A stretch of DNA of 64,000 nt. Origin: a bacterium (lineage in GTDB: Bacteria > Planctomycetota > UBA8108 > UBA1146). Shown here piece by piece: positions 1-41,884 of the stretch. The notes beneath the pieces are model-generated. The model was not told where the DNA came from and did no database searches. It worked only from the letters and a program-made list of their open reading frames with translations. The stretch covers positions 10,178-74,177 of the forward strand of contig JAPOLY010000004.1 of the NCBI GenBank assembly GCA_029976805.1, given 5' to 3'. The translations under genes and the position numbers were made by a program. Position 1 is the stretch's first letter. The number at the start of each line of letters is the position of its first letter.

Positions 1-84
1 GTGGGAGCCGGACTCCCCCGCGACGATGATTTCAAATCGTGTCCCCATCGCCGCGAGGTCGCCGCGCTCCAACAAGTCCACCCC

Positions 85-1425
85 CTAGCCGATGGCGGAG
101 GCCGTCATCGTGGCCGGGTCGAACTCGAAAGCTTTGCCTTCCCACATCGAACGGGAAGCCAGATCAACGATCACCATCACTTTGGTTCCCAACTCGACAT
201 TGGAGTCGGGCTGGCGACGGGTGCGGATGCAATCGAGCCAATTCTTGCGCAGCGCATCCTGATCATTGCCGATGTTTTCACAGACGACTTCTTCGGGATC
301 GACATCATCCGCAAAGATTCGCTGCGGAACCATCTTGCAGTTACCACCATTGAGGTAGACGGTTCCCATGTGTCCACGGACCATCGTCTCCAGACCATTT
401 TCGTTGCAGGTCGATCCAGCCACGATCAGGGTGTGACCTTTTTCAAACTGGACCTGCAAATTGACCTGGTCGTGGTTTTCCATCGCTTTGTCGACATAGT
501 GACCACCGGTCGCGACAACGCGGGTCGGCCAACCCTGATCGAGGGCCATGACCAGCGGAGTCACCTCATGGACCAGCAAGTCTCCGATGATGCCCGTCGA
601 AGCATCCCGGTAACGGCGCCAGCGTGCGTAGAACGCCGGGTCCCACTCCCTCTTGCCCAGAGGGCCGCACCACATATCCCAGTCGAGAGTCTCACCCGGT
701 TGCACCTTGGGATCGATGCCGTAATAAAGCCACTCTCCATTCTTGGAGTTACGACAGTAGGAGGTCTGGCTGAAGGTCATCTTGCCGATGTCACCGCGCC
801 CCATCAGTTCTTGCGCCGCCTTGTATTTGGGCAACATGATCTTTTGGGTACCCACCTGAATCAGGACATCCGGATTTTGCCGTACCACTTCCCGGAGACG
901 CAAGGCGTCGGGAAGATTCAGGGTCATCGGCTTTTCAAGATAGACATCCTTGCCGGCAAGAAGGCAATCTTCCGCCTGCTTTCCATGCCAATGCTCTGGC
1001 GACGCGATGACGACTCCATGAATGTCATCTCGCTCAAGCATCTCGCGGTAATCGGTGTAGACCGCCACCTCTCCGCCCTGACTGTTATTGACCTTATCTT
1101 CAGCCACTTTGCGGCGAACGGTATTGACGTCGCAGACCGCAACGATTTGAACCTTCTCTTCGCCCTTCTTGGCGAAACGCATGAAGGAATCGATGTGGCC
1201 CCCACCCATACCGCCGGTTCCCAGAATGGCGATATTGACCAAACCGTCAGCCCCCAAAGGAGCTCGACTGCGGGCGTTACCGATGGCTCCAGGTACCGCT
1301 CCGATCCGTGCCGCGCCCGGAGCGACACAACCGGTGACGGCCATCGCTCCTGCAGCAAGAGCCGCACCCTTGAGAAAGTCCCTGCGGCCGTTTTGGGGTG
1401 CCGCATTGTGATTTTGCTGTGTCAT
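85..1425 (-). CDS. Gfo/Idh/MocA family NAD(P)-dependent oxidoreductase, TAT-exported
   Basis: ORF 85..1590 trimmed to ATG at 1425. N-term MTQQNHNAAPQNGRRDFLKGAALAAGAMA is a twin-arginine signal. Rossmann motif ILGTGGMGGGH and the EKP motif typical of this family. GAGAGGAA RBS upstream. Confidence 0.85.
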   Translation of the reverse strand: MTQQNHNAAPQNGRRDFLKGAALAAGAMAVTGCVAPGAARIGAVPGAIGNARSRAPLGADGLVNIAILGTGGMGGGHIDSFMRFAKKGEEKVQIVAVCDVNTVRRKVAEDKVNNSQGGEVAVYTDYREMLERDDIHGVVIASPEHWHGKQAEDCLLAGKDVYLEKPMTLNLPDALRLREVVRQNPDVLIQVGTQKIMLPKYKAAQELMGRGDIGKMTFSQTSYCRNSKNGEWLYYGIDPKVQPGETLDWDMWCGPLGKREWDPAFYARWRRYRDASTGIIGDLLVHEVTPLVMALDQGWPTRVVATGGHYVDKAMENHDQVNLQVQFEKGHTLIVAGSTCNENGLETMVRGHMGTVYLNGGNCKMVPQRIFADDVDPEEVVCENIGNDQDALRKNWLDCIRTRRQPDSNVELGTKVMVIVDLASRSMWEGKAFEFDPATMTASAIG

Positions 1426-1450
1426 TGCAGGTTCCTCTCTGCTTTTCAAT

Positions 1451-2419
1451 TCAGGATTTCTTGATTTCATTATCTTGCCACCAGCGATCGCGTTCCCTTT
1501 CGAGAAGTCTCTTGGTCGCAAGAATGCCTTCGGCTTCATCGCCGGCACCTTCAAACTCAATGCCGACGTAGCCCCGGTATCCGGCATCACGGACGAGTCT
1601 CATCATGCGCCGATAATCCGTGTGAACTTCGCTTCCGTTCTCATCAAACTCATGGCTCTTTGCGCTGACCGCTTTGGCAAAGGGCATCAATTCCTCAATC
1701 CCCTGATAACGGTCGTAGGTCTTTCCGTTGCCGAGGTTGAAATTGCCGAAATCAGGCAGCGTTCCACATCGGGGATGGTTCACCATCTTCATGACTCCAG
1801 CGAGCCATGCCCCATTCGAAGAAAGTCCGCCGTGATTTTCAACGATGACATTCAGTCCTTGGGAAGCACCATATTCGGTCAAACGGGACAGACCGTCCGC
1901 TGCAAGTCGCATCTGCTCCTCGTAACTGCCAGAGCTCGCGGCATTGACGCGGATGGAGTGACAACCCAGAAACTTCGCGGCATCGATCCAGCGATGATGA
2001 TTTTTGATGGCCCGTGTGCGAGCCGCATCGTCGGGGTCTCCCAGATTTCCTTCGCCATCGCACATGATCAGCAGGCTTTTGACTCCATGGTCTTCACAGC
2101 GCTGTCGAAGATCCTTGAGGTAGGCTTCATCTCGGGCCTTGTCCTTGAAGAAACTGTTGACGTACTCCACCGCATCGAGGCCAAACTTCTCCCGGGTGAC
2201 CTGGGGAAAGTCGAGGTTCGTCATCTCGCCCTTGCGAAGAGTTCGGTGCAAAGACCACTCCGCCAGAGAGATGTCGAATGTTTGCGGGGGACGAGGTCCA
2301 GGAATCAACTGATAACCTCCTACACTCAATCCTCCACAACCGGATAATCCAGCGGCCAAACCGGCACCGGCAAGGGACAGAAATTTCCTGCGATCGATGG
2401 ATTCAAAGGAGTCGTTCAT
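1451..2419 (-). CDS. sugar phosphate isomerase/epimerase (xylose-isomerase-like TIM barrel), TAT-exported
   Basis: ORF 1451..2503 trimmed to [24 protein letters not shown] (TAT motif). Its ATG overlaps the TGA of the upstream MFS gene (ATGA), so translational coupling. Divalent-metal TIM-barrel motifs (HGGL, IEFEG). Confidence 0.85.
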
Positions 2420-3798
2420 GAGGCCGTTTTTTCTTCGTTGTCGGAGTTGGATCCAGAGGGGTAGCACAAGAGCAGGATTCCAATACAGACCACACTCGCC
2501 CACATCGGAATCGAGAAGAGACGCTCATAAGGCAGATGCCAGGGCGTCCCCTCCGTGATCACACTGGTGTCACTCGCCCAAACAGAGACACTTGTGGCGA
2601 TCTTGCTGCCCACGATGATGCCGATTCCGACGATCACCAGATTAAAGAGACTCTGTGCGCTGGCACGGATGTCCACCCGGCACTCTTCATCGACGATCAT
2701 GAAGGCGACAAAGATGAAGCAGCCGAAACAGAATCCATGCAGAGCCACTCCCACGAGCACCAGCCCCATGGCAGATTCACCGAGCCAACCCGGTGCATAG
2801 GCGAAGATGGCCATTCGCAAGGCGTAGGCGATCAATCCCATGAGCAACAGTTGCTTCCGCGAAAACTTGCTGGCCAGCAGGGGAATCATTGCGAGAACCA
2901 GAATCTCACTCATTTGGCCCACCGTCATCAGGCCTCCACCACCAATTCCAAACAGGGTATTGATGGAGTTTGCGAGATCGGCGTCATTCAACTGCGTTTG
3001 CAGTGTGCCCAAAAACCCGGATGTGTGGACAAAGTAGAACTGATGGATACAGGAGATCGGCACCGCGAGAGCAAAAAGGGTCAACAAAGGCTGACGCTTG
3101 ACCTCACCCAGAGCGGCAAAGGTCGCATTGTCCTCCGCTTTTCCTCCGGGTGGTGTGGCAGGAAGCAGAAAACAGAAGATTCCCATTCCTGCACCGATGA
3201 TGGCTGACAGTCTGAACGCATCCGCGTAGCCCGCATAAACCTCGGGGCTTGCCGCATTGGCAAAATCTCCCCCCGCATAACTTTTGAGAAGATGTTGGCC
3301 GATGATGATTCCAACCGCGATCCACCCCACCGTGCCCCATACCCGAACACGACCAAAGTCGCGATCCCGATCAGGGAGATGATGAAAACTCAGGGAATTG
3401 GTCAGCGACAGAGTCGGTGAATAGATCAAACTGTAGATCAGACTGTAGATCAGAAATTGGTTCACAGCCCCCTCACCGGGCTCGATGGAAGCCAATTGCC
3501 AAACCACGGCTGCGCCCGCCAAATGACTGATTCCCAGGAAATGCTCTGTCCGAAAGAATCGATCCGCAATCTGGCCGGCGATAAAGGGAGCCAGAATCGC
3601 ACCGACGGCACCCACCGCGAACATGTTGCCAATGTCTGCGTCCGCAAACTTCATGTGATTCTTGAGATAGGGGTACAACAGCGGCAGCCATGCCCCCCAG
3701 ATCGCATACTGGAGAAACATCATCAGCGACAATTTGAAATTCAGAACTTTATCGAGGGGCTGAGTCACGGTTACCCTTCCAGTGACAGAGGTCGTCAA
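2416..3798 (-). CDS. MFS transporter, nucleoside:H+ symporter (NupG/XapB)-like
   Basis: 460 aa, about 12 hydrophobic segments. N-terminal motif [19 protein letters not shown] resembles the NupG family. True start may be downstream of 3798. Contains an in-frame 12-nt tandem repeat coding [12 protein letters not shown]. Confidence 0.8.
3419..3456. repeat. 12-nt tandem repeat (about 3 units, ctgtagatcaga) inside the MFS CDS
   Basis: atagatcaaa ctgtagatcaga ctgtagatcaga seen directly; translates to [12 protein letters not shown]. Confidence 0.6.
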
Positions 3799-3972
3799 CC
3801 GAGGCAGACTCCGACGGGTCTCGACTGAAAAATCCGAACCAGGCCCGATTTGGCCTGCCAGAACCCCATCCAGTCACGACTCTATGGCGGATCAACAGGG
3901 AAAAGATCGTAAGGTCTGTGATCTTCCGAGGCTATGACCGACCCCTGAACCCATGAACGGAAGGAATCGTCG

Positions 3973-4689
3973 ATGAAGACCCGAATACTTTCACTGAGGA
4001 TCCCGCTGTGGACTCCTCTCTGGTTCTTCCTTCCAGCACTGATCCTGTCTGCACTGATCGCCGGCTGCTCCGGAATCCCCTCACTTGGCTCTGAAACCCA
4101 CTCCCGGGAGACCTCCCTCTTCGACGGAGTCTCCCTGAATGGCTGGCAGGGGCTGGTTGCCAACCCCTATCAACTTCAGAACATGGACGACGCGGAGAAA
4201 ACACAACTCCAGACAGAAGCGAATGAACAGATGCGCCGGCACTGGAAAGTGGAGGCCGGGGTCCTGTGCTTCGACGGAAAAGGCAGTCATCTGGTGACTG
4301 AACACGAATATGGAGATTTTGAGCTGCAAATGGAGTGGCAAATCACCCCGGGAGGAGACAGCGGGGTCTATTTGAGGGGTTGCCCACAGGTTCAGATCTG
4401 GGATCACCTGAAAAATCCCGTCGGCTCCGGGGGACTCTTCAATAATCAAAAAGCTGGGGCAACACCCCTGGAAGTGGCAGACTCTCCCCTTGGGGATTGG
4501 AATCACTTTCGTATCCTGCTGAAGGCGGATCGAGTCACCGTATACTTGAATGACAGGTTAGTTGTTAATGACACTCCCCTGGAAAACTACTGGCGGAGAA
4601 CCGAGCCGCTCCCCATCCGCGGTCCCATTGAACTGCAAAGCCACGGCACCCCCCTGAAATTTCGGAATATCACCATAAGGGAACTCTAA
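3973..4689 (+). CDS. DUF1080 (3-keto-disaccharide hydrolase family) lipoprotein
   Basis: 238 aa. Signal peptide with lipobox LIAGC|SG. Conserved DUF1080 core (WKVEAGVL...GDFELQMEWQI...GDSGVYLRG...IELQSHGTPLKFRNI). Divergent from the MFS/isomerase/oxidoreductase operon. Confidence 0.85.
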   Translation: MKTRILSLRIPLWTPLWFFLPALILSALIAGCSGIPSLGSETHSRETSLFDGVSLNGWQGLVANPYQLQNMDDAEKTQLQTEANEQMRRHWKVEAGVLCFDGKGSHLVTEHEYGDFELQMEWQITPGGDSGVYLRGCPQVQIWDHLKNPVGSGGLFNNQKAGATPLEVADSPLGDWNHFRILLKADRVTVYLNDRLVVNDTPLENYWRRTEPLPIRGPIELQSHGTPLKFRNITIREL

Positions 4690-4860
4690 GCCTGAATCCC
4701 TTCTGAGACAGTCTCTCGTGCGTTTTTTACAAACTAGTGCTTGAATCCCAATGTAAACACCACGAAACTACTTACAAATGGCCGAAATTATGGCCACAAG
4801 TAAATATTCATACTTCTGAGACCTGTCGTTCTTTATCGACCCATGGGAGGAATTCGATCG

Positions 4861-6204
4861 ATGTCACGCTTTATTTCACATGCCATGATCTTTGCCGTCA
4901 TGACACTCGTCCCCTTCGGCACTGCCGATTCACAGACGATGAACGGGGGATCCGCTTCCGGAGCCGCCGGTTCATCCGTAGCGGTCGATTTCACCATGGA
5001 CGCCGGTGCAGGCGAGATTCAGGGCTGGTCTCTGGGTGTTTGCAACGGGCCTGAGGTGACTCCCACCAGTGTTGGAACTGGAGATGGTGCCGCCAACAGC
5101 ACCTCTACCGTAAAAAATGGCAGTCCAGCCGACTTCATTGAAGACAGTCTCTACCCCGATGGATGGACCCAAGGGGTCGTCATCTGTTTCACCGGGTGCG
5201 CAACTCTTCCTGCTGGAACCAGCGGATTCCTTCTGGCCATCACCAGTTATGACATCGACGGTGGAGCTTCTCCCGGAGATTTCCCCCTCGACTACTGCTC
5301 GTCCCTCGGGTCACCGCCGGTGAGCACGGTGGTCGTTGTTGGTGGATCTTCCAATACCCCCTCCACCAACAGTGGATCGATCACTGTCGTCGACATTCCC
5401 GATCCGGGCTATTCCTACACCGCTTCCGACAGAACCGTCAATTATTCGCCAGACGACGGCAATGCATCCTTCAGCATCGACGTCACCATTGCCGAAATTG
5501 ACAACAGTGCTCTGGGAACTCCGTTCCCGAATGCCACCCAAGGCTTTTCCATGGGCCTGGCCCATGACCCTGCCCTTCTCGAAGCCTCTTCAGTCTCCTT
5601 CACCGGATCTGTGGCTGCTCTCGACGGAGGCAATGGCCCCGGATTCGCAGAACTCAGCATCTACACCGACGGTTGGACCGGTGGAGTCGTTTACTCCTTC
5701 ATTGGTGCCGAGACGATCACCTTCAGTGCTGCGGGTGAGACCGCCGTCATCGCCGATTACTCCACGGTTGCCGGAGCTCTGGCGGGAGACGAGGACGGAG
5801 CAGCTTCCGCTCTCACATGGTCCTCTGGACTCGGATCACCTCCGGTCAGCAATGTCATGGTGGTCGGTGGAAACTCACTGGCTGCTCAACTCAACGATGC
5901 CTCGATCACCTTTGAAGCGGTTTCCGTGACTCCATTCCTGCGCAGTGACGCCAATGCGGACGGTCGCAACGACGTCGCCGATGCGATCTGGATGCTCTCA
6001 GACCTCTTCCTGGGTGGGCCGACCTACAACTGCCTTGCCGCCAACGACGCCAATGGCGACGGTTTTTACGACACTGCAGACCCGGTCTTCGTGATCAGCT
6101 ACCAGTTCCTCGACGGAGCGGCACCTTCCGCCCCGTTCCCGGATTGCGGAATTGCCGCAGATCAGGAGCCGACCGACTGCCTTGAGCACCCTTACTGCAA
6201 CTAG
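4861..6204 (+). CDS. secreted repeat protein with C-terminal type-I dockerin repeat pair and Cys-rich tail
   Basis: ORF 4843..6204; start at MSRFISHAMIFAVMTLVPFGTA (signal peptide) with GGAGGA RBS 9 nt upstream. Two internal about 200-aa repeats (DGWTQGVV...SSLGSPPVSTVVVVGG / DGWTGGVV...SGLGSPPVSNVMVVGG). C-term DANADGRNDVADAIWMLSDLF + NDANGDGFYDTADPVFVISYQF dockerin motifs, then PFPDCG...DCLEHPYC. Confidence 0.7.
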   Translation: MSRFISHAMIFAVMTLVPFGTADSQTMNGGSASGAAGSSVAVDFTMDAGAGEIQGWSLGVCNGPEVTPTSVGTGDGAANSTSTVKNGSPADFIEDSLYPDGWTQGVVICFTGCATLPAGTSGFLLAITSYDIDGGASPGDFPLDYCSSLGSPPVSTVVVVGGSSNTPSTNSGSITVVDIPDPGYSYTASDRTVNYSPDDGNASFSIDVTIAEIDNSALGTPFPNATQGFSMGLAHDPALLEASSVSFTGSVAALDGGNGPGFAELSIYTDGWTGGVVYSFIGAETITFSAAGETAVIADYSTVAGALAGDEDGAASALTWSSGLGSPPVSNVMVVGGNSLAAQLNDASITFEAVSVTPFLRSDANADGRNDVADAIWMLSDLFLGGPTYNCLAANDANGDGFYDTADPVFVISYQFLDGAAPSAPFPDCGIAADQEPTDCLEHPYCN

Positions 6205-6221
6205 CAAGGCTGTCTCAGCAT

Positions 6222-6264
6222 AAAAAAGTGGTGTGATCCGAAGTTCGGATCACACCACTTTTCA
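6222..6264. terminator. bidirectional rho-independent terminator (perfect about 17-bp palindrome flanked by A- and T-tracts)
   Basis: aaaaaagtggtgtgatccgaa g ttcggatcacaccactttt, between convergent genes ending at 6204 (+) and 6284 (-). Confidence 0.65.
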
Positions 6265-6283
6265 TTTCAGAGAAACCGTTTCG

Positions 6284-7303
6284 TCAGGGCGAATCGATTT
6301 CCACAGCCAAGCCACTCGAGAGACTTCGAGCCTCCGCCTGAATCCACCGCGCCACATTTGCCGCCTCCGCCAAAGTCGGGGCAGGCGTTGAGGACTCCCC
6401 CCTGACCAGAGACAGAAAGTGCTCGATCTCCAACTGATACCCACCGGTCGGGGTCAGTTCGATCTCTTCCACCGAATCTCCCTGATAAAGGAGCAACTCC
6501 CGTCCCTCACGTGCAAGGTCGTAATCTGCGACGCCATCTGCAAAGGAAACCCGATAGCGCATTTGAAAGGGGTAACTGGCTGCGGGATACCATGCGCCCT
6601 CCGCTGTGACAGAAGAGGGCCCCTCTGGATAGGCGAATGTGGTCAGCATCTGATTTCGATCACCACTGGTCGTCACCGTCGAGGGAGATCCGAAAGTGGA
6701 CAAAATGAAATCCACGTCATGAATATGAAGATCAGTCAGAGCTCCGCCGGAACGGGATTCATCGTGATAAAAATCCTGACTCCAGCCGGGTATGGCACCA
6801 ATCCTTTGAAAGCGGGCAGTATTGACCGGGCCCAAACAACCGGTTTTGACTTGCTCACGCAACCATGACCAACCAGGCCAGTAACGCATGCACATCGCTG
6901 GCATGCATTCTCTACCGCTCTCTCGAGCCACCGTCGCCAGTTTCTCAATCTCTTCAGCCTCGAGGGCAACCGGCTTTTCTATGAGGACATCCTTGCCCGC
7001 CTGCAAGACGAGAGTGGCCAGCTCCACATGGGTGTCCGTGGGTGTGCACAGGCTGACCGCTTCCACCCCGGTATCCGCCAGAAAAGAGTCGAGGTCCCGG
7101 TGATGAGTGATTCCCAGATCGAGAGGGTTCACTTCCTCTTCCGCTCCCGTCTCGACATTTCCTGCCGAAGCAGAGTTAAGGTCCTCGGGGCACTGGATCG
7201 CCACCACTCTGGCATTGGCACCGCCTTCGATGGCATCCAGCCATGCCCGCAAATGGGTCTTGCCCATAAATCCAAAACCGATGATTCCAATTCCTGTCGC
7301 CAT
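6284..7303 (-). CDS. Gfo/Idh/MocA family oxidoreductase (cytoplasmic, no signal peptide)
   Basis: ORF 6284..7330 trimmed to MATGIGIIGFGFMGKTH (Rossmann GxGxxG). EKP motif (LIEKPVAL). Confidence 0.85.
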   Translation of the reverse strand: MATGIGIIGFGFMGKTHLRAWLDAIEGGANARVVAIQCPEDLNSASAGNVETGAEEEVNPLDLGITHHRDLDSFLADTGVEAVSLCTPTDTHVELATLVLQAGKDVLIEKPVALEAEEIEKLATVARESGRECMPAMCMRYWPGWSWLREQVKTGCLGPVNTARFQRIGAIPGWSQDFYHDESRSGGALTDLHIHDVDFILSTFGSPSTVTTSGDRNQMLTTFAYPEGPSSVTAEGAWYPAASYPFQMRYRVSFADGVADYDLAREGRELLLYQGDSVEEIELTPTGGYQLEIEHFLSLVRGESSTPAPTLAEAANVARWIQAEARSLSSGLAVEIDSP

Positions 7304-7314
7304 CTTCCTGCCCC

Positions 7315-8130
7315 TCAAATTCCCTGCCACTCGCTCAACCTTGAAGAAGCCACTTTCACGTCCCCGATTCGATCGTCGCCGGCTTCTCTTTCAATTACGA
7401 GATCCACGGCCAGATCGCGCTCCCGGATGACTTCAAAAAATCGTCCCCAATCGACACTTCCCGTGCCCACGGGGACTTCACTCCCCCAGGTCCCGGCTGT
7501 TGCAGAGGGATCGGCGTCCTTGATGTGAATCTGTCGAACCCAGGGAGAAAGGAGATCCAGAGAGGAGACCGGTTCACCCATACCGTAGAGGATCATATTG
7601 GCCGGGTCGAAATTGACTCCGATTCCCGGGTGATTCATCTCTTGAAGGACGGTCTGCAGAGTCTCTGCACTTTCCTGCCCCGTCTCCAGGGCAACCTGAC
7701 AACCCTGTTCAGCGAAGACGTCTGCGATCATCACCAGACGATCCATCATCTGCTGTCGCTCTGGGTCAGCGGGATCATGGGGAATGAAGCCGGCATGATA
7801 TGTGACCAAGTTCAATCCCAGTTCACTGGCCAATACCGCGTTTCCACGGGCGTTTTCAAGGTTGGCCCCCCAAGTCTGATCAGGACGAACTCCACCCGTT
7901 TCCCTGATCGTCTCAAAGGTGGAATAATCTTCTCCCACCATCTCCATCATTCCACTGACGACGATCAAATCCGATTCCCGAAGCATCTGCAGATCCTCGG
8001 TCACGGAAGTGGAAGAACGCAAAGGATCCAGAGCGAGCTGAATCCCTTTCACACCGGTTTCACCAACTTTGGTCAAAAGGTCCTGCATCCCTGTGGGTTG
8101 CAGAGACCAGGAACAAACCGCTTTACGCAT
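7315..8130 (-). CDS. sugar phosphate isomerase/epimerase (xylose-isomerase-like TIM barrel)
   Basis: ORF 7315..8142; ATG at 8130 (MRKAVCSWSL) with GAGGAT upstream; GTG at 8142 is an alternative. 11-nt gap to the downstream Gfo gene, so an operon. Confidence 0.8.
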   Translation of the reverse strand: MRKAVCSWSLQPTGMQDLLTKVGETGVKGIQLALDPLRSSTSVTEDLQMLRESDLIVVSGMMEMVGEDYSTFETIRETGGVRPDQTWGANLENARGNAVLASELGLNLVTYHAGFIPHDPADPERQQMMDRLVMIADVFAEQGCQVALETGQESAETLQTVLQEMNHPGIGVNFDPANMILYGMGEPVSSLDLLSPWVRQIHIKDADPSATAGTWGSEVPVGTGSVDWGRFFEVIRERDLAVDLVIEREAGDDRIGDVKVASSRLSEWQGI

Positions 8131-8373
8131 CGGAATCCTCACGCTTCAGAACGCTGAACCAGAGCCTCCGCTTACCAGCAGAGGACTGCAAGATTTGTGT
8201 GCCCCAGCATCCTTGTCGATGAATCGACAAGCAAGACGGAAATACCCTGAGCGACAGGGAATCCGAAAACCGAATTCAAAGTGAAGGGAGAATGTGATTG
8301 TGATGGAAAATGAGAATAGGAACGGAGTTGCGTGTGTTCATAAAACAGGACGGGAAATAAGGTAAAAAGAAAA

Positions 8374-8475
<102 letters not shown>

Positions 8476-8533
8476 TGAGCATACGAAGGCAGGTGACAAG
8501 ATTTCGCTAAGACGAATTCCTGCCAGAGGATGA

Positions 8534-8561
8534 AGCATATCCCTCTTCTCGGTTCTGTCAA
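8534..8561 (-). promoter_or_regulatory. putative sigma-70 promoter for tRNA-Asp (TTGACA-N16-TATGCT)
   Basis: Minus-strand TTGACA (rc of 8556-8561), 16-nt spacer, TATGCT (rc of 8534-8539), about 70 nt upstream of the mature 5' end. Confidence 0.4.
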
Positions 8562-8679
8562 GATCACCTGTTGGCAAACCGGAAATGACTTCCGAAAGAA
8601 GGCGGGAATCACAATTTTGGCACGATCAAAGGCCGAAAATCGTCGTTTTATTCACGGGTTTGGTTGTGTGGGGAAAAGG

Positions 8680-9225
8680 TCAAAACAACTGCAGAATCGC
8701 CCAGAAACCGATGGCAAAGTTGAGGGCAACTTTGGCCACCAGCCCGACCGCCTTGCCGATTGCCGAGGCGAGACCGATCTTGACCGCCTGCTCTGTTCCG
8801 GCCGCTTCTTCCCCTTGCATCTCCCCAAAAATCGCTCCGAACAGGGTTCCGACAACGATTCCCAGCAAGCCTCCGAAGAGTGGGAACAGCAGATTTCCAA
8901 AGATCGCTCCGGCAAAGCCCCCGATCATGCCGCCCACCGCCCCTCGCCAGCGGGAGCCTGCGGCCTTTCCGCCCACCAGACCACTGACGAATTCGAACCC
9001 TTCCGCCAACAATCCCAAACCAAACAGGGTCAATACGATTTCTCCCCCGATGATGACTTCACCAGCAGCGTCGGACACCCCGGAGAGCCATAAAATGGCG
9101 GCAGTCACACCGGGAAAAAATTGGCCCGGAAATCCCATTGCCACCAAAAAACACCCCAACAATGAGGAGAGTGCAATGACGAGGTAGTAGATCCCTCCAA
9201 CGGTCTCCGCTAGGGTAATTTCCAT
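8680..9225 (-). CDS. DUF456-like integral membrane protein
   Basis: ORF 8680..9291 trimmed to MEITLAETVGGIYYLVIAL with GGAAGGG RBS. Gly-rich hydrophobic segments (GGLLGIVVGTLFGAIFG). Confidence 0.65.
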   Translation of the reverse strand: MEITLAETVGGIYYLVIALSSLLGCFLVAMGFPGQFFPGVTAAILWLSGVSDAAGEVIIGGEIVLTLFGLGLLAEGFEFVSGLVGGKAAGSRWRGAVGGMIGGFAGAIFGNLLFPLFGGLLGIVVGTLFGAIFGEMQGEEAAGTEQAVKIGLASAIGKAVGLVAKVALNFAIGFWAILQLF

Positions 9226-9348
9226 GGGGTTCCCTTCCAAATGGCGGATCCCGGGTCGCGATACCTGACAAGATGCTTCGCACGTGACCACTGAACAAAA
9301 AACTTTGCAAGAGAGCTGACACCCTCAGCCTCCGAAAAGGATGCCATC

Positions 9349-9786
9349 ATGAGCCCCACTGACAAACAAGAATCCCTGTCACTTCGGAGCAACCTTTCCA
9401 TGCCGATCTTTCATCTGGTCTGCCTGCTGCTGGTGAGTCTGATCAGCTTCAGTGGCTGCTCAGGAACTCAGGGAGTAATAAACACCGTCGACAGCTCTGC
9501 CTCGGCGACACCGATCTCCTGGTCGAGAGTCCTTCTTGAAGATGAGTTGGTGGGATATGTCGGGTTTCGAAAAATCGACGTCAAGGTCGGTGGAACCCAA
9601 ACAGAGAACGAAATCAACTACGTGTACAATACTGTCTTTAACATCCTTGGCTCCTTTGATGCCTCCGGCAACACAAAGGTCTTCCGTCGCAATCAACCCG
9701 TCATGCTGGGAACCTTTGCCCCTGAGGAGTCCTTCAAACAAATCACAGGCCTGACGGGCAGAATCGAGATCGTCGAGGGTCTTTAG
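9349..9786 (+). CDS. hypothetical lipoprotein
   Basis: 145 aa. Hydrophobic N-terminus with lipobox ISFSGC|SG. AAAGG 8 nt upstream. Start could instead be the internal Met (MPIFHLV, 9400). Confidence 0.5.
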   Translation: MSPTDKQESLSLRSNLSMPIFHLVCLLLVSLISFSGCSGTQGVINTVDSSASATPISWSRVLLEDELVGYVGFRKIDVKVGGTQTENEINYVYNTVFNILGSFDASGNTKVFRRNQPVMLGTFAPEESFKQITGLTGRIEIVEGL

Positions 9787-27853: not shown

Positions 27854-28025
27854 TTTCCTCCGGAAACCGGTTCCCCTTCCCCGCTGACGAGAATCAGATC
27901 TTTCAACCATCCACCCCGGTGGCATGGTCGCACCCCATACTGTAAAAAGATCCCGTCGCCTCTCGATGGTTGCGACAGAGTTCTCGATCCCGATTCCGGA
28001 TCAAGCAAGAAATGGGGAGTGCCCG

Positions 28026-29045
28026 ATGGACAAGAACCTGCTGAAAGAAACTGCACAAAAGATGGTCGCCCGCGGCAAGGGCATCCTTGCTGCCGATGAG
28101 AGCCACCCCACCTGTGGAAAACGCTTTGAGGCTCTCGGCATCGAAAACACCTCAGAAAACCGCCGAATCTACCGGCAAATGTTTTTCAACAGTCCGGATG
28201 TCGAAAAATACATCTCCGGAGTCATCCTGTTTGATGAAACTCTTCGCCAGAGCGACGATGCCGGCGTTCCTTTCCCGGAAAACCTGAATGCAAAAGGTCT
28301 CGTCCCCGGAATCAAGGTGGATACGGGTGCCAAGGATCTCGCCGGATTCCCGGGAGAGAAAGTCACGGAAGGCCTCGACGGTCTCAGGGATCGACTCGCC
28401 GAATACTTTGAGTTGGGTGCCCGCTTTGCAAAGTGGCGCGCCGTGATCACCATCGGAGACGGTATTCCATCCGAGGGATGTTACATGGCCAATGCCCATG
28501 CCCTCGCCCGTTATGCCCGTTTGTGTCAGGAAGCGTCGATCGTCCCCATCGTCGAACCGGAAGTGTTGATGGATGGCGACCACGACATCGACGTTTGCGA
28601 TCGGGTGACCACCAATGCCTTGCATTTGACTTTCCGTCAACTGGAAGAGCAGGACGTAATGCTGGAAGGGATAGTACTCAAGCCCTCCATGATCATTCCG
28701 GGAACCGGTGCCGCAGCGGCAGGCCGCGACGTCGTGGCCTCCAGAACGGTCGATTGTCTCAAACGTACCGTTCCTGATGCGGTTCCGGGAATCGCATTCC
28801 TTTCTGGCGGGCAAAGCGATGAAGACGCCACCGGCCATCTGGATGCGATGAACAAGTTGGGTGGTCATCCCTGGAACCTGACTTTCTCCTACGGCAGAGC
28901 ACTTCAGGCAACAGCCATGAAGACCTGGGCGGGCAAGGCGGAAAATCTTGCCGCTGCATCAGCAGCCTTCATGCAAAGGGCACGGAGCAATGCCGCCGCA
29001 TCGACCGGGGAGTGGGATCAGACTCTGGAGCAATCCGCTTCCTGA
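28026..29045 (+). CDS. fructose-bisphosphate aldolase, class I (eukaryotic-type)
   Basis: ORF 27924..29045 trimmed to MDKNLLKETAQKM (GGGGAG 7 nt upstream). Conserved ILAADES, IVEPEVLMDGDHD, LSGGQS and TFSYGRALQA Schiff-base aldolase motifs. Confidence 0.88.
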   Translation: MDKNLLKETAQKMVARGKGILAADESHPTCGKRFEALGIENTSENRRIYRQMFFNSPDVEKYISGVILFDETLRQSDDAGVPFPENLNAKGLVPGIKVDTGAKDLAGFPGEKVTEGLDGLRDRLAEYFELGARFAKWRAVITIGDGIPSEGCYMANAHALARYARLCQEASIVPIVEPEVLMDGDHDIDVCDRVTTNALHLTFRQLEEQDVMLEGIVLKPSMIIPGTGAAAAGRDVVASRTVDCLKRTVPDAVPGIAFLSGGQSDEDATGHLDAMNKLGGHPWNLTFSYGRALQATAMKTWAGKAENLAAASAAFMQRARSNAAASTGEWDQTLEQSAS

Positions 29046-29185: not shown

Positions 29186-30796
29186 ATGAGTCTGATTCCC
29201 GGCCTTCTGTTCCTCGTTGGCAGCCTACTCACTGTTCAGCCGGTCATTGATTCTCCTCCGACCGATCAACCCGCAACCGTTGATTCAGCCGATTCTCCAA
29301 AAGGGATGGGGATCGCCGACGCGAGGCATCTCCTCGATCGAACCTGCTTCGGAGTTCCCCACCAGACACTGGAGAACTACGCTTCCCTGACCAGAGATCA
29401 AGCGGTCGATCAACTGATCAGCACCTTGAAAACCGAAGCTCAAACGCCCCTTCCAGAATGGACCGGATTAACGGTTCAGGAGATCCGGGATCTTCGTCTG
29501 GAGGACAGGCAAGCTTTCGGGAAAACACAAAGAGGTTGGCAACAGGAAGCCCGATCCTGGTGGGCACAGGAAATCCTGACCACTTCGTCACCCCTGACTG
29601 AACGTCTGGTTTTGATGTGGCATGGGCATTTCACTTCAGAAATGCGGACCGTCAGATCACCTCACGCAATGCTCGCTCAAAATCGGCTCTTCCGTAAAAA
29701 TGGAAGCGACAACTTCGCAGAACTCTTGAGAGCCGTTTCCATGGACAGCGCCATGGCCATCTATCTCAACACCCAACAGAGCAAAAAGGGCAAACCCAAT
29801 GAGAACTTTGCCCGGGAACTCTTCGAACTCTTTAGTCTTGGAGAAGGCCATTACACGGAACGGGACGTCAAGGAAGCAGCCCGTGCCTTTACCGGATATC
29901 GAGTTCAGGGATCCCTGGGGCAGGTTCGCAAAGTCTCCCGTCTCCATGATTCTTCCGTCAAAACAATTCTGGGTAAAAGAGGCCGTCTTGATGGAATGGA
30001 TGTCGTCAATTTGGTCCTCAAGCATCCCGCGTGTGGTGAGTGGATTGCACGCCGGTTCTGGCTCGAATTCGTCTCACCGACGCCTGATCAGGAAGTGATC
30101 AAAATGTGGGGAAAAGTGCTACGACGATCCGATTGGGATTTGAACGCATTCTTGTCACACGTCTTCAAATCAGATCAGTTCTGGGCAGCAGAGTATCGGG
30201 GAGCTCTGGTCAAAAGCCCGGTCGATCTGGTCATGGGCTCGCTACGAAGATTGGATATCACCGAGATTCCAGGGCTGCAGATCAACCGCAACCTTCAAGC
30301 GATGGGACAGGTTCTCTTCGACCCACCAAATGTGGCGGGCTGGCCCGGTGGAACCGCATGGATCGATTCGACGTCTTTGCTGGAGAGACGCAAGTTTCTT
30401 CAGGACGCCGTCCCTACAGCCATGATTTTTTCCACATGGCAAAAGCGCGAAGGCTCTGCCAGTGTCGGCAAGTCAGGGATGAATCCCGAGAAAACACCCG
30501 ATATGGATCCGGAGATGGATCCGGAGATGTCTCCAGACATGAAACCGGAAATGAATCCAGCAGGAAACAGGATGGCCAAGCGATTGAACCGTCGACAGAT
30601 TCGCCGTTATCGCCCAGTTGCAGCGCAGTCCGTTGAACAGCTGTACCAACAATTCATCGGCGGAAAATCGATGAATGAAGAAGCATGGACCCTTTCATGG
30701 TTGCCTTTTCAACCAGTCACAGATGCCGATCAGAGCGATACCGGCTTTGGACGGCTGCAAGAACTGATTCTCGACCCGACCTATCAGCTGAAATGA
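29186..30796 (+). CDS. DUF1800 family protein
   Basis: 536 aa. N-terminal signal-like segment. DUF1800 core (LVLMWHGHFTS...LSLGEGHYTERDVKEAARAFTG). Contains a short acidic M/P/E/D-rich tandem repeat. Confidence 0.8.
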   Translation: MSLIPGLLFLVGSLLTVQPVIDSPPTDQPATVDSADSPKGMGIADARHLLDRTCFGVPHQTLENYASLTRDQAVDQLISTLKTEAQTPLPEWTGLTVQEIRDLRLEDRQAFGKTQRGWQQEARSWWAQEILTTSSPLTERLVLMWHGHFTSEMRTVRSPHAMLAQNRLFRKNGSDNFAELLRAVSMDSAMAIYLNTQQSKKGKPNENFARELFELFSLGEGHYTERDVKEAARAFTGYRVQGSLGQVRKVSRLHDSSVKTILGKRGRLDGMDVVNLVLKHPACGEWIARRFWLEFVSPTPDQEVIKMWGKVLRRSDWDLNAFLSHVFKSDQFWAAEYRGALVKSPVDLVMGSLRRLDITEIPGLQINRNLQAMGQVLFDPPNVAGWPGGTAWIDSTSLLERRKFLQDAVPTAMIFSTWQKREGSASVGKSGMNPEKTPDMDPEMDPEMSPDMKPEMNPAGNRMAKRLNRRQIRRYRPVAAQSVEQLYQQFIGGKSMNEEAWTLSWLPFQPVTDADQSDTGFGRLQELILDPTYQLK

Positions 30797-30802
30797 GATC
30801 CC

Positions 30803-32014
30803 ATGGAATTTGATCGCAGAACCTTTCTCCATCTCAGTGGAGGCGCATGCCTTCCATGGCTGGTTCCCGGAGTCGAAGCTTGGGCATTTGACGACCCTCA
30901 ACAGAAGCAATTGAAGGTCGCTCCCGGTTTGCGAGAGCGGACCCTGATACTTGTGGAGCTTCAGGGCGGAAATGACGGTTTGAATACCGTGATCCCCCTC
31001 CGGGATGAGCGTTATCAGGAATTGAGACCCCGTATCGGTTTGAAAAAGAACCAGATCATCGAGTTGGATTCGAAACAGGGAATGCATTCTTCCCTGAAAC
31101 CACTGACAGAGGCATGGGAGGCTGAGGAAGCCAACTGGATACTCGGCCTCGGTTACCCGGATCCCAATCGATCCCACTTCCGTTCCATCGAAATCTGGGA
31201 AACCGGCTCCGACAGTGACGAGGAATTGCAGGAAGGCTGGCTGACGAGAATGCTCAAGGCTCAGCCCGATCCAGAGCGTGCCGCCGAAGGAATCATTATC
31301 GGTGGAGGTGACGCCGGCCCTCTATACGGGACCGGCTTGCGGGTAATCAACATGGATGACCCCGAAAAATTTTCTCGCCAGGCTCGGGCAGTTCCGGAAG
31401 TGGCTCGCGGAACGGACGCTCGCAAGGCACTGGAGCACCTTCTCGATGTTCAGGATGACATCAAAAAAGCCGCAGGGATCATCGAAGAAAAAATTCAGGC
31501 TTCACCGGATCACGGAGTCCGGTTCCCCGGCACCCGGTTCGGCCAGCGTTGCAAGATTGCCGCAGAGATGGTCACCTCTGGAGTCCCCTGCCCAGTCATC
31601 AAGATCTCTATCGGCGGTTTTGACACACATAACAACCAACTCAATCGCCACTCCCGTCTGTTGACAGAACTGGCGGACGGTTTGGCAGCCCTGCGCAAGG
31701 CACTGATCGCCACCGGTAAATGGGATCGCACCCTGATCAGCACCTACTCGGAGTTTGGACGCCGTGCCAGAGAGAATGGCAGTGAGGGGACCGACCACGG
31801 CACCGCCGCTCCACACCTGTTGCTCGGTGGCAATATCAAGGGAGGCTTCTCTGGCAGGCAGCCTGATCTCGGGAAATTGGTCCGGGACGACCTGATCCAC
31901 ACCACCGACTATCGCCGTCTCTATGCCACCATTGAGCAGAATTGGTTTGGACTGAAGGGCAGATCTGAGGTTTCCCGCGGAGCAAAACCTCTCGACGTCA
32001 TTCGCAAGAGCTGA
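30803..32014 (+). CDS. DUF1501 family protein (sulfatase/alkaline-phosphatase-like), TAT signal
   Basis: 403 aa. MEFDRRTFLHLSGGACLPWLVPGVEAWA twin-arginine signal. Immediately downstream of DUF1800, the canonical planctomycete pair. Confidence 0.85.
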   Translation: MEFDRRTFLHLSGGACLPWLVPGVEAWAFDDPQQKQLKVAPGLRERTLILVELQGGNDGLNTVIPLRDERYQELRPRIGLKKNQIIELDSKQGMHSSLKPLTEAWEAEEANWILGLGYPDPNRSHFRSIEIWETGSDSDEELQEGWLTRMLKAQPDPERAAEGIIIGGGDAGPLYGTGLRVINMDDPEKFSRQARAVPEVARGTDARKALEHLLDVQDDIKKAAGIIEEKIQASPDHGVRFPGTRFGQRCKIAAEMVTSGVPCPVIKISIGGFDTHNNQLNRHSRLLTELADGLAALRKALIATGKWDRTLISTYSEFGRRARENGSEGTDHGTAAPHLLLGGNIKGGFSGRQPDLGKLVRDDLIHTTDYRRLYATIEQNWFGLKGRSEVSRGAKPLDVIRKS

Positions 32015-40035: not shown

Positions 40036-41874
40036 TTGTCCCCGACCAAAAGCGCAAAGAAAAAGAGCGCGAAGAAGAGCACCAAAAAACCGACAAAAAA
40101 GGCGGCTAAAAAAGTCGCCAAAAAGAAGGCCACGAAAAAAGCGGCTCAAAAACGATCTACCGGAGGCAAGACCGGATCCCGATCGAAACCGGAGCAGGCG
40201 GATCTTTTCAGTCAAAGTTCCAAGGGTAAAGCCACCAAGGCCTCTCCTCCCCGATCTAAAAAGAAGATCAAAAAATCTCGTGAGACCTCTGGAGAGGATG
40301 CTTCTTCAGCCAACAAGGCTGAACAGTTGGCGGCCAAGCAGAAGGACATCTCCGTCAGTGAATTTTTCGCCAAGAATCGGCACCTGCTCGGTTTTGACAG
40401 CCCCGCCCGAGCTCTCCTGACCACCGTCAGGGAAGCAGTCGACAACTCTCTGGATGCCTGTGAAGAAGCAGAATACTTGCCGACAATTGTCGTTGAAGTC
40501 ACCGCTGCCTCCGAAGAACAACACACCATTCTTGTCCGGGATAATGGGCCAGGCATCGTTCCCGCACAGTTGCCCAAGATTTTTGGTCGACTGCTTTATG
40601 GATCGAAGTTCCATGCCCGCAAGCAGACCCGGGGTCAACAGGGAATCGGGATCAGTGCTGCAGGCATGTATGGAAACTTGACCACCGGCAAACCGATGGT
40701 GGTCACCAGCAGAACCTCCAGAAGAAAACCTGCCACCCAGGTCACCCTTGCCATCGACATGGCCAAAAACCAACCCGTGGTCAAAAAAGAGCGGGAAGTG
40801 GATGTCGATTGGGCCCATGGAACCGAAATCCATATCGAGTTGGAAGGGACCTACAAAAAAGGCAAACACTCCATCGATGCTTTCCTGGAACAGGTCTCCC
40901 TAGCCAACCCCCATGTTGAAATCCAATACAAAAACCCTGTAGACAAAGAGCCCATCATTTGGGAACGGGTGACGAAGAAACTTCCGGAAGCCCCCATGGA
41001 AATCCTGCCTCATCCACACGGAGTGGAACTGGGAATCCTCATGCAAATGATGAAGGACACCTCTTCCAGAACTGTCAGCGGATTCCTGTGCAGCGAGTTT
41101 TGTCGAATGACCCCGAATGTGGTGAAAAAGGTCAGTGAGCAAAGCGAAGAACTGGGCAAGTACATCGACACCGATCGTCACCCCCGCAGGCTGAGCAGCG
41201 CCGATGTCAAGATTCTTCACAAGTCCATCGAACGGACCAAGATGATGGCGCCGCCAACCAACTGCCTCTCCCCCATCGGAGAAGAATTGATGGCGAAAAC
41301 CCTCAGGCGCAACTTTGACCCCGAACTGGTCCTGACAGTCTCCCGTCAACCTGCCGTCTATCGAGGCAATCCTTTCCAGGTAGAGGCGGGGATCGCTTAT
41401 GGCGGAGAACTCCCCGGCGACGAGCTCGCCAGCATTTTCCGCTTTGCCAATCGGGTTCCCCTGCAATACGAACAGGGCGCATGCGCCATCACGCAATCGA
41501 TCATTTCGACCCCGTGGAAGAACTACGAGGTTCAACAGGCCCGGGGAGCATTGCCAACGGGTCCGTTGGCGATTCTGGTTCACATTGCGAGTGTGTGGGT
41601 TCCATTCACCTCGGAAAGCAAAAAAGCGGTCGCCGGATACGACGAGATCCTCAAGGAGATGCGCCTCGCTATCATGGAGGCGGGTCGAAAATTGGCGATC
41701 CACCTGCGCAAGAAACGTCGACTCGCGGACGCAGAGCGCAAAAAGGATTACATCAAGAAGTACATTCCCCAGATCGGCATCGCCCTCCAGGACATTCTGG
41801 AGCTGAGCGATAAACAGAGAACCGGAGCAGAGTCCAAGCTGGCCGATGTTCTCGAAAAAAGCCGGAAGATGTAA
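40036..41874 (+). CDS. DNA topoisomerase VI subunit B (GHKL ATPase) with lysine-rich N-terminal extension
   Basis: 612 aa; TTG start after GAGGAGG. Bergerat ATP-binding motifs ([49 protein letters not shown]). N-terminal about 95 aa is AKK/KKA-rich and H1-like. An alternative TTG near 40321 would remove the tail. Confidence 0.85.
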
Positions 41875-41884
41875 GGGAGACTGA

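Follow-up and report, generated by a model that had tools for sequence, protein, structure and literature searches.

A conserved gene cluster of Planctomycetota encoding a candidate variant of 3-keto-glycoside cleavage with import and cytoplasmic finishing

The window analysed here, a 64,000-nucleotide (nt) stretch of contig JAPOLY010000004.1 (assembly GCA_029976805.1) from a marine planctomycete of the UBA8108 lineage, begins with a cluster of seven genes, designated A to G. Gene A (85-1425, minus strand) codes for a 446-amino-acid (aa) NAD-type oxidoreductase of the Gfo/Idh/MocA family (GFO below) exported by the twin-arginine translocation (TAT) pathway, and gene B (1451-2419, minus strand) for a xylose-isomerase-like TIM barrel of 322 aa with TAT and lipobox signals. 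They are followed, in window coordinates, by C (2416-3768, minus strand), encoding a 450-aa major facilitator superfamily (MFS) transporter of the nucleoside:H+ symporter (NHS; NupG/XapB/YegT) family, and by the divergent D (3973-4689, plus strand), encoding a short-form DUF1080 (PF06439) lipoprotein of 238 aa. Gene E (4843-6204, plus strand) encodes a secreted protein of 453 aa, while F (6284-7303, minus strand; 339 aa from the ATG at 7303) and G (7315-8130, minus strand; 271 aa) encode a cytoplasmic GFO without a signal peptide and a cytoplasmic xylose-isomerase-like TIM barrel. The chances are about even that this locus is an uncharacterised variant of the oxidation-elimination-hydration (non-Koshland, 3-keto-sugar) route of glycoside cleavage, to which import and cytoplasmic finishing have been joined. 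The stepwise 3-keto cleavage of glycosides was worked out recently, mainly in gut Bacteroidota, Agrobacterium and C-glycoside degraders, and is established for BT2156-59/AL1-4 and Agrobacterium (Liu 2021, PMC8121099; Bitter 2023, PMC10628242; Nasseri 2024, 10.1101/2024.03.25.586180). The pathway type is therefore already published, and the locus is a variant of it rather than a new route.

The three minus-strand genes A, B and C are tightly coupled, as an earlier sequence-only reading of this DNA (the original prediction) had stated. The 'tcat' at 2416-2419 reads ATGA on the minus strand, where the stop codon of C (TGA) overlaps the start codon of B (ATG), and the stop of B (1451-1453) is separated from the ATG of A (1425-1423) by a 25-nt spacer (1426-1450) that contains GAGAGGAA. 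The start of C is most likely the GTG at 3768, giving 450 aa, because the arrangement GGAAGGG-N6-GTG, a Shine-Dalgarno sequence plus start codon, is invariant in the intergenic alignment and independent gene calls also give 450 aa; the alternative TTG at 3798 would yield a protein of 460 aa. Pfam agrees with the four families that had been named (Gfo/Idh/MocA, TIM barrel, NupG-like MFS and DUF1080), and the divergent DUF1080 protein does carry a lipobox, L-I-A-G-C32. The cluster is larger than the segment 85-4689 to which the unit had been confined. It reaches 8142 on the right and includes the previously omitted F/G pair (6284-8130), in which G lies 11 nt upstream of F, and on the left the operon continues past the window edge, with the next gene beginning at 1-81 (minus strand). 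No further GFO, TIM-barrel or DUF1080 gene was found among the open reading frames (ORFs) scanned past 8142, in the remaining 56 kb of the window.

The N-terminus of A, which reads MTQQNHNAAPQNGRRDFLKG in the window translation, contains the twin-arginine motif GRRDFLK, in which R14, R15 and F17 are invariant in the family. It scores 23.9 against TIGR01409 (cutoff 16.7) and 21.6 against the Pfam TAT_signal model, just below the cutoff of 22.7. Assignment of A as a lipoprotein was considered and rejected, as its lipobox-like V-T-G-C is not conserved in the family. Matches to PF01408 (69.4 bits, cutoff 24), PF19051 (40.4), PF22725 (39.5) and PF02894 (38.5) place A in the Gfo/Idh/MocA family. Among PDB chains, 8tdf/8tdh (AL3) ranked first, with E values of 1.7e-17 by phmmer and 1.3e-24 with a 35-sequence profile, and were the sole chains to align with A beyond the Rossmann domain, through the D-x3-H motif. 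The identification of 8tdf with AL3 follows from its chain numbering, which upon addition of 29 gives the published residues Gln161, Arg192, Trp195, Asp248 and His252; together with Tyr349 these are the reported active-site residues of AL3 (Nasseri 2024, 10.1101/2024.03.25.586180). Four of the six have counterparts in A, namely Q194, R225, D282 and H286 for Gln161, Arg192, Asp248 and His252, the arginine column being aligned with moderate confidence; Trp195 is replaced by Lys228, and Tyr349 falls outside the aligned region. K165 of A aligns with the lysine of the EKP motif, and K165, Q194, R225, D282 and H286 are all invariant in 35 family members. The top NCBIfam match of A is the equivalog model for the BT_2158 glycoside 3-dehydrogenase (NF058561; 102.4 bits), which covers residues 14-324 of A and positions 2-284 of the 487 in the profile. 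These relationships make A a candidate glycoside C3 dehydrogenase.

B is probably a TAT-exported lipoprotein: R10 and R11 of its DRRKFL motif are at least 90% conserved in the family, where L-x-G-C is the majority form of the lipobox, and the TAT hidden Markov models (HMMs) gave no match on B. The twin-arginine signals proposed earlier for both enzymes are borne out by TIGR01409 for A and by the conserved arginine pair for B. Membership of B in the xylose-isomerase-like TIM barrels is clear (PF01261, 104.1 bits, cutoff 31.1). Its closest solved relative is 4OVX from Planctopirus limnophila, a structure without assigned function that Mori 2021 (PMC8563793) mentions; it matches B with a sequence E value of 6e-121 and its AlphaFold2 (AF2) model (pLDDT 88) in Foldseek with 64% identity and a target-normalised TM of 0.97. 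The best matches with an assigned function are the DgpC/CGD chains (profile E about 1e-11, Foldseek E 4e-15, identity 16-18%), which rank ahead of UlaE, Art22, YcjR, psicose epimerases and IolI. Residues E194-N-H196, D223, K254, H256 and E288 of B are invariant in its family, and the HMM alignment superposes E194-N-H196 on E141-V-H143 of DgpC. In PuCGE, His143 is the proposed catalytic base, and the published metal ligands of AgCGD2 are E147, D179, H269, K271 and E305. D223, K254 and E288 of B, which are aligned to an Asp, a Lys and a Glu of DgpC, would correspond to the CGD ligands D179, K271 and E305, and five of the six CGD active-site positions are kept in B (E194, H196, D223, K254 and E288). 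B is accordingly a candidate metal-dependent 3-keto-glycoside beta-eliminase.

By motif and profile, B is classed in the DgpC-like/4OVX branch of these barrels and not in the BT2156/AL1 branch. It has E-x-H in place of the H-x-H of the BT2156/AL1 type, which is characterised by a His/Asp/His metal site and a catalytic Glu, and a PDB profile search to E=1 recovered only 4OVX, CGD/Dgp/Dfg chains, Art22 and epimerases. The family is very large: a homologue search with B gave at least 8000 matches at E 1e-10 or better, the best 120 of which were all at least 62% identical and included source names from Acidobacteriota (Blastocatellia) and Rhodocaloribacter.

D matches PF06439, the DUF1080 or 3-keto-disaccharide hydrolase family, over positions 3-187 of 187 (142.1 bits, cutoff 26.8), and its nearest full-length solved relative is 4QHZ. 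The conserved channel residues of BT2157 are Glu103, Asn134, Glu164, Gln166, Tyr190, Lys245, Gln273 and His275, a numbering that was checked via 3osd + 25. D retains Gln166 (Q141), Gln273 (Q222) and His275 (H224), and both the Q-x-H pair and the Gln166 equivalent are invariant in D orthologues. Candidate roles for D are 3-keto-glycoside lyase, 2-hydroxy-3-keto-glycal hydratase or sugar-binding lipoprotein. Transporter C belongs to the Nuc_H_symport family (PF03825, 262 bits), reaches 223 bits against the TIGR00889 nucleoside permease model (cutoff 446), and is nearest to the solved chains of YegT (E 3e-45) and NupG (E 2e-30). F is a further Gfo/Idh/MocA protein (PF01408, 77 bits) without a close characterised relative; the BT_2159 equivalog threshold was not reached by the locus. 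G is a second member of the TIM-barrel family (PF01261, 88.2 bits, cutoff 31.1), its nearest solved chain being 3TVA (E 2.5e-30), labelled generically as 'Xylose isomerase domain protein TIM barrel', followed by AsbF, and it likewise has no close characterised relative. F is a candidate keto-sugar reductase and G a candidate hydratase or isomerase for an imported keto-sugar.

What is directly observed is the order of the genes and its conservation across loci, the targeting motifs, the protein families and the conserved residues; from these we infer every catalytic step, the substrate and the transported species of the following scheme. A would fold with NAD bound and be exported by the TAT pathway, which suits proteins that first fold around a cofactor, and once in the periplasm would oxidise an oligosaccharide or glycoside at the C3 hydroxyl of its non-reducing sugar. 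The membrane-anchored, metal-dependent B and/or the lipoprotein D would then take the C2 proton and eliminate the C1 substituent, giving a 2-hydroxy-3-keto-glycal that would be hydrated to the 3-keto-sugar. This product could be finished in a redox-neutral manner, as in Bacteroides, if A reduces it with the bound NADH and C imports the free sugar. Alternatively, C may import the keto-sugar or the glycal, which G and F would hydrate or isomerise and reduce with NAD(P)H. The latter route requires another re-oxidant for A. Candidates for an outlet that would carry its electrons to the respiratory chain are the products of the genes downstream of A: an ApbE-family protein, a second TAT-GFO and a membrane protein with a CxxCH motif. 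Import and cytoplasmic finishing have a genetic precedent in Caulobacter, in which a transporter, two 'epimerases' and a reductase are reported to be required downstream of periplasmic 3-oxidation and a DUF1080 protein (Price 2022, PMC9007349).

Among known systems, Bacteroides thetaiotaomicron BT2156-BT2160 and Alistipes AL1-AL5 contain the same set of an exported TAT-GFO (AL3/BT2158), an exported TIM barrel (AL1/BT2156), a DUF1080 lipoprotein (AL2/BT2157) and a cytosolic GFO (AL4/BT2159), matched in both family and compartment by A, B, D and F, respectively (Liou 2020; Liu 2021, PMC8121099; Nasseri 2024). A shares several alignable NAD and sugar-pocket residues with AL3, is likewise predicted to be periplasmic, and its NAD is presumably tightly bound. 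Identities are low, however, and D is of the short form, with Q-x-Q for E-x-Q and GGDSG for GGNSG; the SusR-type regulator is missing here, and the MFS importer, the cytoplasmic TIM barrel and the ApbE/second TAT-GFO/CxxCH unit are additional.

The DgpA plus DgpB-C, CarBC and CGD systems and the GlycDH-AtOGE-AtHYD-Gfo system of Agrobacterium (Mori 2021, PMC8563793; Bitter 2023, PMC10628242) follow the same logic of oxidation, elimination, hydration and reduction. B is nearest to the DgpC/CGD alpha subunit by both profile and fold and shares with it the E-x-H motif (metal Glu and catalytic His) and the Asp, Lys and Glu, while DgpA-type GFOs head the Foldseek list of A. Unlike B, a TAT lipoprotein, the characterised proteins of these systems are cytoplasmic or unexported; a lid domain is not evident in B, and nothing at the locus points to aromatic C-glycosides. 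The lacABC neighbourhood of Caulobacter crescentus (Arellano 2010; Price 2022, PMC9007349) shows the division of labour proposed for C, G and F, but its dehydrogenase is the FAD/cytochrome c enzyme LacABC and not a TAT-exported NAD-type GFO, and the parallel drawn here concerns the roles of the proteins.

Three further systems are more distant. Levoglucosan degradation by LgdA/LgdB1/LgdB2/LgdC also combines a GFO dehydrogenase with a TIM-barrel eliminase and hydratase acting on a 3-keto intermediate, but it is cytoplasmic and without DUF1080. In YcjS/YcjR/YcjQ of Escherichia coli, a GFO 3-dehydrogenase is found beside a TIM barrel acting on 3-keto-glycosides, and YcjR is a structural neighbour of B; this system is, however, cytoplasmic and performs epimerisation rather than cleavage. 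The glucose-fructose oxidoreductase of Zymomonas mobilis is a TAT-exported member of the GFO family with a non-dissociable nicotinamide cofactor (NADP) and a periplasmic ping-pong redox cycle, but it matches A weakly (E 1.6e-5) and acts on C1 of free glucose and on fructose instead of glycosides. Overall, the locus departs from the characterised clusters in five features: the TIM-barrel branch, the short Q-x-Q DUF1080, the dedicated NHS-family MFS, the cytoplasmic TIM and GFO pair and, above all, the ApbE/second TAT-GFO/CxxCH unit.

A genome scan yielded 80 loci with A orthologues (51-98% identity) in metagenome-assembled genomes of Planctomycetia, Phycisphaerae and Gemmatimonadota, on which the window proteins were placed by tblastn; the following counts cover 49 loci, those flanked by 6 kb or more to either side. 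A B orthologue (56-97% identity) is present near A in 29 of the 49, an MFS of the same NupG family in 36 (20 of them with at least 50% identity) and any DUF1080 gene in 29, and F and G are linked to A in 19, Gemmatimonadota included. All seven genes were present in the window order in each of the 11 loci with full flanks in which A is at least 70% identical. Gemmatimonadales have the arrangement G-F/B-A and Phycisphaerae the arrangement MFS-DUF1080-A, with B a few kb downstream; the association of these genes with A persists although their arrangement changes. The association extends to Phycisphaerae and Gemmatimonadota, and the lack of conserved synteny that had been named beforehand as an argument against the proposal is not seen. 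Clustering as a by-product of paralogue richness was considered and rejected, because specific orthologues, such as B, stay linked across phyla and no other members of these families were found in the rest of the window. The data suggest a distinct, highly conserved version of the 3-keto route in marine and soil Planctomycetota and Gemmatimonadota.

Only one Phycisphaerae locus, L024, was inspected, and the DUF1080 protein of its operon is of the long form. Read by eye against the 3osd alignment rather than aligned, it has the motifs GGNSG (Asn134 in BT2157), E-x-Q (Glu164/Gln166) and Q-x-H (Gln273/His275). A sulfatase-like gene, also read by eye, lies directly upstream of the MFS-DUF1080-A operon on this Phycisphaeraceae chromosome (L024 6000-7364, minus strand), which hints at sulfated glycans as possible substrates in that lineage.

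The closest characterised relatives of A (AL3/BT2158), B (DgpC) and D (BT2157) all act in 3-keto-glycoside pathways, and to this extent the cleavage module named in the original prediction stands; the relationships are remote, and the locus falls in none of the curated equivalog families tested (BT_2158, BT_2159, IolG and LgdA). In the remote-homology comparison of the three enzymes the 3-keto-glycoside relatives lead, in the case of A only marginally ahead of inositol dehydrogenases. A number of observations weigh against the assignment. The 102.4 bits of A compare with a cutoff of 750 bits for NF058561, which does not allow it to be called a BT2158/AL3 equivalog, and its lead in the profile search is small, the next chains being 4gqa (E 5.5e-23) and 3cea (Lactobacillus inositol dehydrogenase, 4e-22). 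The Foldseek list obtained against the PDB with the AF2 model of A (pLDDT 84) is flat (E 1e-20 to 1e-17), with 8tdf outside the top 50 and with DgpA, scyllo-inositol dehydrogenase, NAD-dependent sulfoquinovosidase, 1,5-anhydrofructose reductase and others as neighbours; a structure-based assignment of A was rejected, since the fold does not separate substrates. B has Ser252 at the position of the CGD His metal ligand, with H256 nearby. No DgpB-like partner (the small beta-sandwich DgpB/CarC) was found among the genes at 1-8142 or downstream in the related contigs L004 and L081, and neither the NCBIfam comparison nor the PDB profile search to E=1 detected a BT2156/AL1 relationship of B. In D, Glu164 and Asn134 of BT2157 are replaced by Q139 and D129, the insertion carrying Glu103 is absent, Lys245 is not placeable, and position 156, a possible counterpart of Tyr190, is Phe in the window copy and Tyr in the orthologues. 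The cluster contains no glycoside hydrolase, SusCD pair or regulator that would point to a substrate. Finally, the ApbE/second GFO/haem-motif unit is without counterpart in the described 3-keto-glycoside systems, and that part of the biology is unexplained.

Rather than cleaving glycosides, the locus might catalyse a redox-neutral periplasmic epimerisation or isomerisation similar to that of YcjS/YcjR/YcjQ, in which A turns a rare sugar or glycoside into a 3-keto intermediate by oxidation at C3, a neighbouring centre of that intermediate is inverted by B and A re-reduces the product, followed by import by C and processing by G and F; this appears rather unlikely. Such a cycle would fit a periplasmic enzyme with non-exchangeable NAD, and YcjR (3-keto-D-glucoside 4-epimerase, 6wn6), UlaE and psicose/tagatose 3-epimerases are indeed among the Foldseek neighbours of B. 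B also keeps E194 and E288, whose equivalents we take to be metal ligands and acid/base residues in epimerases of this fold (the D-psicose 3-epimerase family). However, DgpC outranks all epimerases, with a profile E value of 1e-11 compared with 0.06 or worse for UlaE, and likewise in Foldseek. B furthermore carries the eliminases' E-x-H motif and beta7 Lys, neither of which is known from D-psicose 3-epimerase-type enzymes. Epimerisation would also leave the persistent co-occurrence of DUF1080 unexplained. In the literature covered, the sole mechanistically dissected function of DUF1080 proteins is that of a lyase/hydratase on 3-keto-glycosides.

The operon part downstream of A bears on a further alternative. 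The gene next to A has a GTG start 3 nt past the A stop, and its first 27 codons, which are cut by the window edge (1-81, minus strand), translate to VDLLERGDLAAMGTRFEIIVAGESGSH, leaving no room for a signal peptide. This sequence matches the start of the gene at 8611-9489 of the near-identical contig L004, which encodes an ApbE-family protein (PF02424, 107.8 bits). In L004 and L081-L084, A is followed by genes for ApbE and a second TAT-GFO, then by those for a 257-aa membrane protein, a third TAT-GFO, another exported TIM barrel and a 1019-aa protein; the ApbE-initiated unit spans 8611-11588 in L004 and 12345-15316 in L081. The second TAT-GFO has a degenerate catalytic motif, the EKP lysine being replaced (C-E-A-P). 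The 257-aa membrane protein, which carries the precomputed label PF27139, has four predicted hydrophobic helices and one CxxCH motif that is at least 90% conserved, and the 1019-aa protein (L004 13921-16980) contains two CxxCH motifs and ends in a dockerin-type motif like that of E. ApbE directly follows A in 74 of 75 loci, the second TAT-GFO is present in 67 of 70 and the CxxCH membrane protein in 51 of 65, which makes ApbE, the second TAT-GFO and the haem-motif protein the most conserved partners of A.

With this unit as the best-conserved part of the neighbourhood, the locus could encode a respiratory periplasmic dehydrogenase system for free sugars, anhydrosugars (levoglucosan-like or 1,5-anhydro) or cyclitols, without any glycosidic cleavage. 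A and the second TAT-GFO would then pass electrons via a flavinylated partner and the CxxCH protein to the respiratory chain, and the TIM barrels and DUF1080 would process the keto products. The conservation of the CxxCH motif favours such a system, levoglucosan and C-glycoside operons use the same GFO and TIM logic, and cytochrome-linked LacABC-type 3-dehydrogenases provide precedents. Nevertheless, its probability is low. A search of the cluster proteins and their orthologues revealed no conserved flavinylation motif of the canonical [DN]xx[ST]G[AS][ST] type, be it in A, in the second GFO or in the CxxCH protein, and the motif is absent from the window proteins; the levoglucosan dehydrogenase model gives A just 36.5 bits, with a cutoff of 650; and no direct route from NAD-type GFO enzymes to cytochromes is known. 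A respiratory system would also overlap with 3-keto-glycoside cleavage and does not exclude it.

There is likewise a small chance that the two are combined, the four-gene unit of A, the signal-less ApbE, the second TAT-GFO and the haem-motif membrane protein connecting the respiratory chain to a periplasmic glycoside 3-dehydrogenase of the NAD type. In this case oxidative cleavage would yield electrons rather than be redox-neutral, and the keto-sugar would be imported by the MFS transporter and then reduced by F and G. If true, this would be a previously undescribed way for an exported enzyme to recycle its non-exchangeable NADH, and ApbE-type flavinylation would gain a new class of clients that are modified ahead of TAT export. 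A literature search found no paper linking ApbE with Gfo/Idh/MocA, none for the Pfam name Aq_1264_TM and none within the eLife flavinylation survey. Cytochromes have been raised as possible re-oxidants (Nasseri 2024, 10.1101/2024.03.25.586180), and the link between ApbE, the second GFO and the haem-motif protein offers a handle on the question posed by the authors of the pathway, namely, by what means the periplasmic dehydrogenase re-oxidises its tightly bound cofactor in vivo.

Another possibility concerns D only, which could stand outside the pathway as a lectin-like (CBM66/ConA-fold) surface lipoprotein capturing substrate or as a conventional glycanase. PF06439 overlaps CBM66, a DUF1080 protein of Thermogutta, THTE_1561, is on record as a characterised endo-xanthanase/lichenase, and the replacement of Glu164 and Asn134 and the missing finger insertions would be consistent with such a role. 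The invariance of the Q-x-H pair and the Gln166 equivalent of the BT2157 channel in D orthologues argues against it, as does the presence of DUF1080 genes with A in distant phyla, including in one operon with A, and we consider it distinctly improbable.

Inositol or cyclitol catabolism, with A as an inositol dehydrogenase, B as an IolE/IolI-type enzyme and C as an inositol importer, had been put forward as the reading that would displace glycoside cleavage; it draws on the IolG equivalog model (TIGR04380) as the second-best NCBIfam match of A (93.7 bits) and on the inositol and scyllo-inositol dehydrogenases among the PDB and Foldseek neighbours of A, but it is very improbable, since IolG is far below its cutoff of 355, the better of its two matching stretches covers residues 63-218, alignments with the PDB inositol dehydrogenases are confined to about residues 60-225 (the Rossmann domain), B shows no IolE match and no likeness to IolI beyond the common fold (IolO 16.9 bits, cutoff 300; IolI 26th by Foldseek, behind the DgpC chains), no IolB, IolC, IolD or IolJ match was found among the cluster proteins or 30 further large window ORFs scanned, and A and B are exported, while the known Iol enzymes are cytoplasmic (Bacillus subtilis iol pathway).

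Planctomycetota, Gemmatimonadota and the further groups named among the B homologues are important for polysaccharide turnover, and their many paralogues annotated as 'oxidoreductase', 'sugar phosphate isomerase' or DUF1080 are largely unexplained. If the activity is confirmed, very large protein families would acquire a function, and a glycan-degrading capacity would be revealed that surveys of ocean carbon based on carbohydrate-active enzymes (CAZymes) have overlooked. Homologues of the pathway in marine bacteria would be expected by a specialist, and it is the conservation across phyla, the family size and the flavin/haem linkage that make the locus a worthwhile experimental target. Tools for planctomycete genetics are available (PMC5394234).

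The remaining gene of the cluster, E, is a member of the block in close relatives only, where it occupies the same position with 51-93% identity, including all 11 loci with the complete gene order. Its product has no Pfam match and consists of two internal repeats of ~170 aa, with a pair of D-x-N/D-x-D-G calcium-loop-like (dockerin-type) repeats at the C-terminus.

Two conserved non-coding features are found within the cluster. Between C and D, the element at 3904-3942 (on the C strand, GTCRTAGCCTC-N18/19-CTTASGAT), which has an imperfect inverted core, TCGTA/TACGA, is retained in nine contigs (L001-L004, L013, L081-L084) while the surrounding intergenic DNA diverges, and may represent an operator or promoter. 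Between the convergent E and F, a perfect 18-bp hairpin (6224-6262) with a GC-rich stem lies between an A-run and a U-run. The 91-nt segment 6200-6290 folds with -36 kcal/mol (z = -5.9; 0 of 200 shuffles fold as well), and the hairpin is a probable bidirectional intrinsic terminator. Promoter and terminator consensus scans of 1-8700 gave nothing above the shuffled expectation, and an Rfam scan of the same region (E up to 1) detected no riboswitch or leader, but only a tRNA-Asp and chance matches of microRNA models on the terminator hairpin. The tRNA-Asp (GTC) gene (8384-8460, minus strand) marks the right-hand boundary of the cluster, beyond which the genes are unrelated and include those for DUF456, TPR, FG-GAP and TruB proteins.

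Elsewhere in the window, a DUF1800/DUF1501 pair (29186-32014, plus strand) is located beside a class I fructose-bisphosphate aldolase gene (27924-29045). At 45403-50045 (plus strand), TPR repeats and a cytochrome c554-like multihaem region are combined in one protein of 942 aa, and an FG-GAP/ASPIC (UnbV) protein is encoded after it. Adjoining genes at 40036-43036 (plus strand) encode subunit B (Topo-VIb transducer and HATPase) and subunit A (Spo11/Toprim) of topoisomerase VI, a type IIB enzyme of the archaeal/eukaryotic type that is uncommon in bacteria.

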